Shown here: one piece after another, positions 5,339 to 8,300 of the stretch
Layout: the number at the start of each line of letters is the position of its first letter
Position numbering within the stretch: the stretch's first letter is position 1
From: a virus
Taxonomy: Duplodnaviria; Heunggongvirae; Uroviricota; Caudoviricetes
Direction: 5' to 3' (one strand)
IMG/VR virus record: IMGVR_UViG_638341086_000010
Length of the DNA stretch: 39,725 nucleotides
Translations under genes and position numbers: made by a program
The notes under the pieces: generated by a model
The model's database searches: none
Seen by the model: only the letters and a program-made list of their open reading frames with translations
What the model was told of the DNA's origin: nothing

Positions 5339-8300
5339 TCAGCTGATACTGATACCTGCTGTGGATTTTTTCATCACCACAACCAGCAGATCGCTGATAC
5401 TGGTTGTTGGTGTCCAGTTATTCGCTCCTGATGAAGATACGGTGAATGTCAGTGTCAGCGTCCCCTGTCCGGCAGGCATATCTATAACTGAGGAAAATAC
5501 GCCCTGAGCATCCGTCGTGGACTGATTAAAAATCTCCTGACCATTGCGGGTCACTCTTAACCGGCAGGTTGAATACCAGTATGACTGTTGGTTATTACTG
5601 TTGAAATTCTCATGCTTACCACCGCGGAATAACACTGGCGGTATCATGACCTGCCGGTCAAATTTCTGATCATCACTGATTCTTACCGTGATGGTGCCAC
5701 TGGCATAAGTGCTCGTGCGGGGGAAAGACTTGCTGACCGTTTTGACAATATCACCTTCAATCTGGTTGGCTGACAGTTTCCCCTTAATCTGACAGTTCTC
5801 ATTAATCGTGACGTTGTTGAGCGTCCCTGAGTTCGCATTCACACTGCCACTGATATCCGCATTTTTAGCGGTCAGCTTTCCGTCTGATGTCAGGGAAAAT
5901 ACCGGAGGACTGCCACCGCTGGTAATGGTGGGTGCCGTCAGGCGTTTCAGGAACACGTCGTTCATGAATATCTGATTGCCCTGCGCCACAAACATCGGCG
6001 TTTCATTCCCGTTTGCCGGGTCAATAAATGCGATACGGTTAGCGGCAACCAGAAACTGGCTCAGTTTGCCTTCCCCCGTGTCCTCCATGCTGAGGCCAAT
6101 ACCCGCGACATAATGTTTGCCGTCTTTGGTCTGCTCAATTTTGACAGCCCACATGGCATTCCACTTATCGTTGGCGTCCTTCCACTCTTTCGAAAACTCC
6201 TCCAGTCTGCTGGCGTTATCCTCCGTCAGCTCGACTTTTTCCAGCAGCTCCTTGCCGAGATGGGATTCGGTTATCTTGCCTTTGAAAAAATCCAGGTAAC
6301 CTTCCGCATCATCGCTCGCCCGACCGACGGACTCCACAAATGCCGATTTGCCAACGGTGTTCACACTGCGAACGTAAAAATAATAATCATGGCCCGGTTT
6401 GATATTGATACTGGCAGCTATCCAGTACAGCGCCGTGCCAAGATAGCGGGCTGTGGTTTCAACCTGCCTGATATCCGCAATCCGCTTTTCCGAGAACCAG
6501 AACTCAAACTGTACCGTCGGATCATAAACCGCAAGATGCGGCGTGGCGGTTATCTGAAAATAGCCCGGCGTCAGCTCAATCCGCGACGGCGCTGCCGGTG
6601 CGGCAATCCGGAACGATACCGACGCCGGATCGCCCTGCTGTCCCCACGCATTTACCGCCCGGACTGTCAGCGTGTAACGCCCCAGCGCCAGTTGCCTGAA
6701 GCGGTATGTGGTTTCCGTCGTCCGGGCCGTGCTGACCAGCCGCTCACTGCCGTCATCCGCTGCCACGGTCAGGCGAAGAAGGAAGCTAACGCCCTTCACC
6801 ACCTTCGGCGTGTCCCAGCGCGCCAGCACCTGATATTCCCCGCTGTCTGCGGTGACTTCGGCAGTCAGGTGCTGTACCGCTGGCGGCGTGACACCATTCA
6901 CCGTGCCGCTCTGGTCGCCGTCAAAGTGCGCCCCGTTATCCACGATGGCTTCTTTTTCCGGTACATGCTGCACGGCAGTGATGGCATACGTGCCGTCATC
7001 GTTCTCACGGATACTCACGCAGCGGAACAGGCGCTGGCGCAGCGTCGGCAGCTTCAGCCCCCATACGCTGTATTCAGCAACGCCGTCAGGAACACGGCTC
7101 ACTTTCACCTTCACGCCGTCGGTGACGGACTGAACCTCCACGCTGACCGGATTGCCACTTCCGTCAACCAGGCTTATCAGCGTGGTACCGGAGGATGGCA
7201 GCGTGATTTCACGGTCGAGCGTCAGCGTCCGGGTCTGGCTGTTCACCGCCAGCACGCGCCCGCCGGTGCTGATACCGGCATAGTCATCATCGCAGATTTC
7301 AATGACATCGCCCGGCACATGGCGAAGCCCTTCTGCGCCCACGCTGAAGTCCACGGTCTGCGTTTCCAGCAGTTCTGTTTTAATCAGCCACAGCCCGGCG
7401 CGGTGTGCCTGCCCCCGGCTGGTACAGCCAAAAGCATCCATCTTCGTGACGTTACGACCGTAACGGGCAATGGCCTGCGTATCCTCCACAAGCTCTGTCG
7501 CCGTCTCCCAGCCGTTGTTCGGGTCAATCCAGTTCACCTCAACGGCATTATGGCGGTCCTTCAGGGCGCTGAAGCTGTAGCGGAACGGCGCGCCATCATC
7601 CGGCATCACCACATTACTGCGGTTATAGGTCCACACCTTATCCGACGGTCGGTCCTGCACGAACGTCAGCGTCTGCCCGTTCCATACCGGCATACAGCGC
7701 ATCGCCGAGCAGAAATCACTGAGCACATCCCACGCCTTGCGCTGTGTGGTCAGGTACGCATTACAGGTGATGCGCAGCTCCGTGCCGCCAAAGCCGTCCG
7801 GCACTGACTGGTCGCAGTACTGGCCGATGACATACAGCGCCCATTTGTCCACATCCGCCGCACCAAGACGTTTCCCCATGCCGTAGCGCGGGTGGGTCAG
7901 CATATCCCACAGACACCAGGCCATGTTGTTGCTGTATGCTGGTTTTAACGTTCCGTCCCAGATACCGCTGTATTGTCGCGTCTGCGGGTTATAGTTCGAC
8001 GGCACCTGCAGAATGCGCCCGCGAAGATGATAATTACGACTCACCTGCTGGCTGCCGAACTGCTCCGAGTCCACCTGTACGCCGACCAGTGCCGTGTTCG
8101 GGTAGCACTGTTTCACATCGATGATTTCGGTGTATGACGACCAGAGCGTTTTGTTCTGCAGCTGGTCTGTGGTGCTGTCCGGCGTCATCCTGCGCATCCG
8201 GATATTAAACGGGCGCGGCGGCAGGTTATCCACCACCACCGAGGCCAGATACTGCGAGGTGGTTTTGCCCTTAATGGTGATGTCTTTTTCCGTCACCCAG

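Follow-up and report, generated by a model that had tools for sequence, protein, structure and literature searches.

The question raised by this locus is which receptor would be recognized by a tail tip protein that resembles lambda J over most of its length and departs from it at the receptor-binding end. The gene lies on the minus strand of the window (the whole stretch of viral DNA analysed, 39,725 nt). We interpreted its product as a natural mosaic, in which a lambda-type body has been recombined onto a tip allele that binds the trimeric porin OmpC and not LamB, and put the probability of this reading at about 90%.

5339–8737, minus strand: J (tip attachment/central tail fibre protein), 1132 aa plus stop.

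As called mechanically, the open reading frame holding J was longer (5339–8791, minus strand, 1150 aa). Alignment with lambda J, together with the start annotated in RefSeq for a 99.4% identical prophage, placed the start of J at M19 of this frame, an ATG at 8737. The resulting 1132 aa are also the length of lambda J (NP_040600; PDB 8IYK, 8XCG, 8XCJ and 8XCK), and the two proteins were 90% identical end to end (1019/1136 identities, BLASTP). The Pfam domains of J were FNIII-A_GpJ, Phage-tail_3, Ig_J, Ig_J_second, Phage_Tail_Tip and Ig_GpJ_C, in the order also found in lambda. The gpJ annotated in the prophage of E. coli O39:NM F8704-2 matched the full length of the window J without gaps. The neighbours of J in the lambda tail cluster (H, M, L, K, I, J, lom, stf, tfa) were all there at full length, including the three genes beyond J.

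4673–5272, minus strand: lom (Ail/Lom outer-membrane beta-barrel, 199 aa), inside the patch that diverges from lambda.
1582–4614, minus strand: stf (side tail fibre), 1008–1010 aa.
1007–1582, minus strand: tfa (tail fibre assembly), 191 aa.

By its collinear similarity, domain order and gene position, the window J belongs to the lambda gpJ family. The similarity was not evenly distributed over the protein, and two parts could be delimited.

5867–8737, minus strand: lambda-type body of J, 93–100% identical to lambda at the nucleotide level (100-nt windows) and about 97% at the amino acid level.
5342–5828, minus strand: receptor-binding module of J, of the A8/phi330/YYZ-2008 type.

The hub domains, the FNIII domains and the helical shaft belong to the body, as does most of the beta-prism fibre. 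The module comprises the end of the beta-prism and the Ig-like receptor-binding domain. The amino acid identity of about 97% extended to about lambda residue 970, with scattered substitutions up to the motif SGTL, past which the match to lambda J collapsed (BLASTP).

The last 159 residues were compared in an alignment of five sequences (window, lambda, phage 21, 434-type and Stx phage YYZ-2008). The identity to lambda J was 46% (71/154), with 10 additional gap columns in three indels. This is far from the high identity to residues 974–1132, receptor-contact loops included, that would mark a lambda tip, and also from the level of at least 90% over the C-terminal 150 residues that would indicate an essentially unchanged end. 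The initial annotation had described a J that follows lambda for most of its length and diverges in about the last 150 residues, and this description was borne out.

Indel hot spots in lambda J have been placed at residues 1012, 1048–1049, 1077–1078 and 1107 (PMC6646904). The indels of the window J relative to lambda fell at three of these sites, near 1012, 1048 and 1107. In the same alignment, the tip of phage 21 (OL657228) was the closest distinct allele, at 81% identity without indels, and the tip of YYZ-2008 was 100% identical.

A Pfam search assigned residues 1009–1132 to PF12421 (Ig_GpJ_C, 'Tip attachment protein J, C-terminal receptor binding domain') with E = 5.5e-36 and a score of 124.1 bits against a cut-off of 26.2. 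The J tip is a diverged homologue of the lambda tip within the same Pfam family, and not an unrelated domain. Of the domain swap at the receptor-recognition end that had been proposed, the exchange of a module stood, but the incoming piece was a homologous allele (PF12421) rather than a foreign domain. The two alleles exchanged are homologues within a single domain family, and lambda may equally well be the odd one out among the J tip alleles.

Prediction of the last 203 residues with single-sequence AlphaFold2 gave an all-beta model of low confidence (mean pLDDT 58.5). The top Foldseek matches of this model were 9WCA, 9WCB, 8XCK and 8XCJ, and they were largely driven by the sequence. On the other hand, the Ig-like beta-sandwich fold of the tip is effectively known by homology from 9WCA, which is 98–99% identical.

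The window is a DLP12-like lambdoid prophage. Besides emrE, ybcK, ybcL and ybcM, it has the head and tail genes of a lambda-like phage as a full cluster, and its replication and immunity region is lambda-like as well. The integrase frame (38562–39725) ends at its right edge. One insertion bears on the expression of J.

25055–26365, strand not given: IS3-family element, 1.31 kb.

This element sits in place of ybcN, ninE, ybcO, rusA, ylcG, quuD, nmpC, essD, rrrD, rzpD and most of iss, which was reduced to 23 residues. The loss takes in genes of the nin region, the late-gene antiterminator Q and the lysis cassette. QuuD, EssD, RrrD, RzpD and the products of the other displaced genes gave no tblastn match in the window. 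Judged by the genes for Q, holin, endolysin and spanin, the window fell short of a complete inducible prophage.

With Q and the lysis genes gone, normal late-operon expression or particle release is unlikely. J is therefore probably silent here; to act, it would need complementation or transfer by recombination to another lambdoid phage. The prophage probably cannot make virions by itself, and the virion of which the initial annotation spoke is hypothetical here unless the prophage is complemented or recombined.

We considered it rather probable that J in this window is an inert relic, that is, that the defective prophage forms no virion and the tip serves only as a reservoir for recombination. 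This is what the replacement of ybcN through quuD, nmpC, essD, rrrD, rzpD and most of iss would lead one to expect. However, J and the other head and tail genes, 23 in all from nohD through tfa, were full length and gap-free against the F8704-2 prophage, with identities of 99–100% except for K, I and J (97–98%). The deletion is therefore recent, or the genes have been maintained. An inert J is a matter of expression, and is compatible with the assignment of OmpC as the receptor.

A PDB sequence search with the last 203 residues returned 'A8 gpJ 713' (9WCA and 9WCB) with E = 7e-127, well ahead of lambda J. The two entries were released on 2026-01-28 under the titles 'Closed state of A8 gpJ 713 central tail fiber' (9WCA) and 'Open state of A8 gpJ 713 central tail fiber with OmpC G17 from E. 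coli EDL933' (9WCB). A PDB search with E. coli K-12 OmpC confirmed that an OmpC chain is present in 9WCB.

Over residues 713–1132, the window J and A8 gpJ were identical at 408 of 420 positions. Ten of the 12 differences lay upstream of the junction and were polymorphisms between lambda and the window. The other two were in the tip of about 160 residues, where a loop reads TST in the window J and TNS in A8 (FPRTNSYASG). This position is equivalent to lambda residue 1012, a known hot spot of specificity (PMC6646904).

A8 is one of two chimeras in which natural C-terminal portions of gpJ were fused to lambda gpJ (Brödel et al., Nature 2024, PMC11338833). It delivered DNA to MG1655 doubly deleted for lamB and ompC only when an OmpC variant was supplied in complementation, from a plasmid (PMC11338833). 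Of 23 OmpC variants, 21 supported efficient delivery by A8, by the second chimera, 1A2, or by both (PMC11338833; bioRxiv 10.1101/2025.02.28.640725).

Stx phage phi330 provided a second line of evidence. Among 54 Keio outer-membrane mutants, lysis by phi330 failed only on the ompC mutant, and complementation with ompC restored it (PMC12502783). The J tip of phi330 (PV189401) was 100% identical to the window tip from TAKNADISG to the C-terminus, TST loop included. The hairpins of phi330 J that make the contacts are T918–Y921, E953–S962 and A1015–P1020 (PMC12502783), and their counterparts are present in the window J, including ANNWTP.

Taken together, the A8 tip data, the ompC dependence of phi330 and the identity of the tips indicated OmpC as the most likely receptor of the window J, as far as near-identical tips can tell. 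The earlier proposal of a receptor other than LamB thus gained support, and the receptor could be named: the phi330 tip is 100% identical and the A8 tip two residues off.

Two cautions apply. The OmpC dependence of phi330 was measured on the whole phage, which has side tail fibres too. The TST/TNS difference from A8 falls on a hot spot, yet phi330 also carries TST.

The window tip might still use LamB, or LamB together with OmpC, in the manner of phage 21, in which case its divergence from lambda would imply no change of receptor. The phage 21 tip is after all the nearest distinct allele (81%); its native receptor is LamB, and a single mutation in J confers the use of OmpC (PMC11336670). The choice of receptor is therefore labile in this clade and can shift with few substitutions. 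However, the A8 tip, with only two residues different, works in lamB-deleted cells, needs OmpC (PMC11338833) and was solved bound to it, and phi330 with its fully identical tip cannot lyse an ompC knockout (PMC12502783). Continued use of LamB was accordingly judged very improbable, and OmpC was retained as the receptor of this J.

The position of the junction between body and tip was determined in two ways.

5829–5866, minus strand: crossover interval, 38 nt without informative sites, flanked by the sites 5867 and 5828.
4800–5866, minus strand: whole patch departing from lambda, covering the J tip, the spacer between J and lom and about 80% of lom.
5302–5321, minus strand: terminator-like hairpin and T-run between J and lom.

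The homology to lambda DNA (95.6% over 3762 nt) stopped at 5781 and returned at about 4800, within the 3' end of lom. In sliding 100-nt windows of a three-way alignment (window, lambda and YYZ-2008, with 2H10 left out), the identity to lambda dropped from 93–100% to 45–56% at about 5850. At the same place, the identity to YYZ-2008 climbed from 55–90% to 99–100%. Beyond the junction it remained at 89–100% through lom, mostly at 96% or more.

Informative sites, at which lambda and YYZ-2008 differ, gave a sharper boundary. They were nearly all of the lambda type down to 5867, the last lambda-type site of the run. From 5828 on, more than 500 sites were of the YYZ-2008 type, and only 4 exceptions were of the lambda type. 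Runs of this kind ruled out chance as the source of the mosaic, and the last lambda-type and first YYZ-type sites placed the crossover within the 38 nt of 5829–5866.

The swap that the initial annotation had placed at 5800 was therefore present, but the junction lay 30–65 nt upstream. The extent given for it (5339–5800) was too short at the other end as well; the patch did not end at the stop codon of J and ran through lom to about 4800.

The crossover interval corresponds to about lambda residues 958–970 and encodes part of a linker motif that was invariant in the five tip types. The published 'specificity region' of J, residues 960–1132, begins at the same place (PMC6646904). The first amino acid change after the junction was lambda S974 to N (codon at 5816–5818). 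The specificity region has been described as a module that evolves and recombines independently of the remaining J (Maddamsetti et al., PMC6646904).

Laboratory lambda and phage 21 do shift receptor through a few point mutations in the J end (PMC11336670, PMC6646904), but it is hardly credible that fast point mutation under diversifying selection reshaped this end in situ with no exchange of a module, because the switch is abrupt, within 38 nt, because 1.3 kb downstream of it, non-coding DNA and lom included, is mostly 99–100% identical to a Stx phage that is otherwise 55–90% similar, and because the specificity region and the other parts of J give incongruent trees (PMC6646904). We infer that the tip exchange arose by recombination between lambdoid phages or prophages.

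For this recombinant J, the following course would apply. Homologous recombination in the invariant linker would have joined a lambda-type body (about residues 1–970) to another J tip allele, of the type carried by many long-tailed Stx phages. In the assembled fibre, the bottom loops of the trimeric Ig-like tip would enter the extracellular mouth of the OmpC trimer, and binding to the porin would push the three tips apart. This movement would pass up the beta-prism fibre and open the tail tip for DNA ejection.

The model for these steps is lambda itself, in which the trimeric Ig-like tip puts four bottom loops into the LamB trimer, and the tips then spread (PMC11101478). By way of the beta-prism fibre and the helical shaft, the spreading reaches the tail tip and opens it (PMC11101478). 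The closed and the OmpC-bound open states of A8 gpJ indicate the same trigger for the A8 allele. By analogy with lambda J on LamB and A8 gpJ on OmpC, and from a sequence identity of 98–100%, we infer that the window J would be triggered in the same way.

Comparison with known systems gave counterparts for each part of the mosaic. A8 gpJ has the same make-up as the window J, a lambda-type body with this tip and a junction in the same conserved linker, but A8 is man-made and the window J is a natural recombinant. Lambda J shares the length, domain order and gene neighbourhood; its receptor is LamB, whereas OmpC was assigned to the window J from the likeness of its tip to others.

The long-tailed Stx phages phi330 and YYZ-2008 (NC_011356; genus Pankowvirus) have a tip 100% identical to that of the window J. 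The lom allele and the intergenic region of YYZ-2008 were also 89–100% identical to those of the window in nucleotides, mostly 96% or more. On the other hand, the J bodies of the two phages were only about 55–90% identical to the window J body at the nucleotide level, their genomes otherwise resemble neither lambda nor DLP12, and stx is present in them.

In phage 21, which natively uses LamB, use of OmpC and OmpF was gained by mutation (PMC11336670); unlike the window, it has no lom downstream of J. Lambda h434 (OM418627) shares the mosaic principle. For 434 J in lambda h434 hybrids, a classical host-range variant, OmpC is cited as the receptor in PMC11101478. The 434-type tip was only 49% identical to the window tip over the last 159 residues and had different indels, so it is a separate OmpC-binding allele.

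Natural lambda-like phages gave matches to the J gene as a whole. In 2H10, Turner, PhiR29_2, PhiR30_1 and SPF_0923, the entire J gene was 96% identical to the window J in nucleotides, and the tip was about 99% identical (nucleotides or amino acids). In Chlobot, 93% of the J gene was matched at 95.9%, and the tip was 98.8% identical in amino acids. For lambda_2H10, a J has been reported whose first 982 aa exceed 97% identity to lambda, against 40–60% for the last 150 (Andrews and Fields, bioRxiv 10.1101/2020.06.25.171868).

All six were deposited as phage genomes, for several of which a laboratory host is named, and the window element differs from them in its loss of Q and the lysis genes. The pairing of a lambda body with this tip thus occurs in viable phages, namely 2H10, Turner, PhiR29_2 and SPF_0923.

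The tip allele is common in E. coli prophages and Stx phages. In a phage collection, the 462-nt tip was at least 99% identical in 35 records and 95–99% identical in 9. The phage records with this tip were mostly Stx1a/Stx2a phages, with 2H10, Turner, PhiR29_2 and SPF_0923 in addition. Among 5426 complete E. coli genomes, the tip DNA was at least 99% identical in 846 records and 95–99% identical in a further 659, or about 1500 records at 95% nucleotide identity or above.

Particles with this J would be predicted to need OmpC and not LamB on the host. The same allele had been picked for engineered DNA-delivery particles, OmpC being reliably expressed in the gut and LamB often down-regulated (PMC11338833). 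Earlier work already covers the exchange of the specificity region of J as a module, and also this allele with its receptor and structure. For annotation, 'J, 90% identical to lambda' hides a switch of receptor, and the last 160 residues merit separate typing.

It is a tentative and rather doubtful suggestion that variation of the TST/TNS loop tunes the recognition of OmpC alleles, and that the defective prophage persists as a reservoir of tips. If a reservoir it were, recombination in the linker could supply superinfecting lambdoid phages with lom and a tip directed at OmpC, and their host range would be switched in one step.

The genes beyond J gave some minor observations. The distal 214 aa of stf were 68% identical to the orf-314 part of the lambda side tail fibre. 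The side tail fibre of Ur-lambda is stated in PMC11338833 to bind OmpC itself. Inverted repeats bounding an invertible tail-fibre segment beside an invertase were looked for, and the only candidates were two short imperfect pairs, which were not convincing.

Co-variation of the lom allele with the tip type, as a hint of receptor masking, was considered and rejected, for a 97% identical Lom of 199 aa accompanies the 434-type tip. The window Lom shared 46% identity with lambda Lom and 97% with its counterpart in lambda h434. For lom, it is lambda that is unusual, and not the window.

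The lom gene, which shared one patch with the tip of J, and the hairpins around it were placed as follows.

4673-5272 (-), lom, encoding a Lom of 199 aa
5302-5321 (-), terminator-like hairpin and T-run directly 3' of J
4625-4646 (-), terminator-like hairpin and T-run directly 3' of lom

Lom was 46% identical to that of lambda, versus 97% to that of the lambda h434 hybrid, which carries the J of phage 434. The same lom allele was also found beside another type of J tip. This indicated that lom did not co-vary with receptor specificity. Judged from the sequence, the two terminator-like hairpins that bracket lom may make it a separate transcription unit.

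Two features concerned the region at and beyond the start of J, the first of them seen on comparison with the prophage of E. coli O39:NM strain F8704-2, a 99.4% identical relative.

8737-10110, genes K and I with the 5' portion of J, lowered identity versus F8704-2
8738-8791, 18-codon upstream extension of the mechanical J ORF

The amino acid identity was 96.8% for K, 97.9% for I and 98.4% for J, lower than for the other head and tail proteins (99-100%). This suggested that recombination had also affected K-I-J, in another patch smaller than the first. The ATG at 8737 is equivalent to the lambda start of J and is the one chosen by the RefSeq annotation; the 18 codons upstream are probably untranslated.

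Toward the other end of the tail region lay two further genes.

1582-4614 (-), side tail fibre gene, product of 1008-1010 aa
319-909 (+), intact serine recombinase / DNA invertase gene, with Resolvase and HTH_7 domains

The side tail fibre was longer than that of lambda, and its distal 214 aa, which contained histidine-rich repeats, were 68% identical to the orf-314 part of the lambda fibre. The side tail fibre of Ur-lambda binds OmpC (PMC11338833). If the fibre in the window does likewise, the central and side fibres would both be directed to OmpC, an arrangement deliberately avoided by the designers of A8, an engineered lambda gpJ chimera (PMC11338833).

The invertase gene was arranged tail-to-tail with tfa. 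It was intact here, whereas in F8704-2 an IS3-family element interrupted the gene. Inverted repeats that would bound an invertible tail-fibre segment were sought, and none was convincing.

The window contained an IS3-family element of its own.

25055-26365, IS3-family element of 1.31 kb, with flanks at 24993-25061 and from 26364 onward
25110-25436 and 25433-26323, its two ORFs

At this place the 99.4% identical prophage has ybcN, ninE, ybcO, rusA, ylcG, quuD, nmpC, essD, rrrD, rzpD and iss. The first ten had no match within the window, and iss was cut down to 23 aa. Replacement of the region from ybcN through most of iss by the element thus left the prophage without its late antiterminator and lysis cassette. 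The head and tail genes were all intact.
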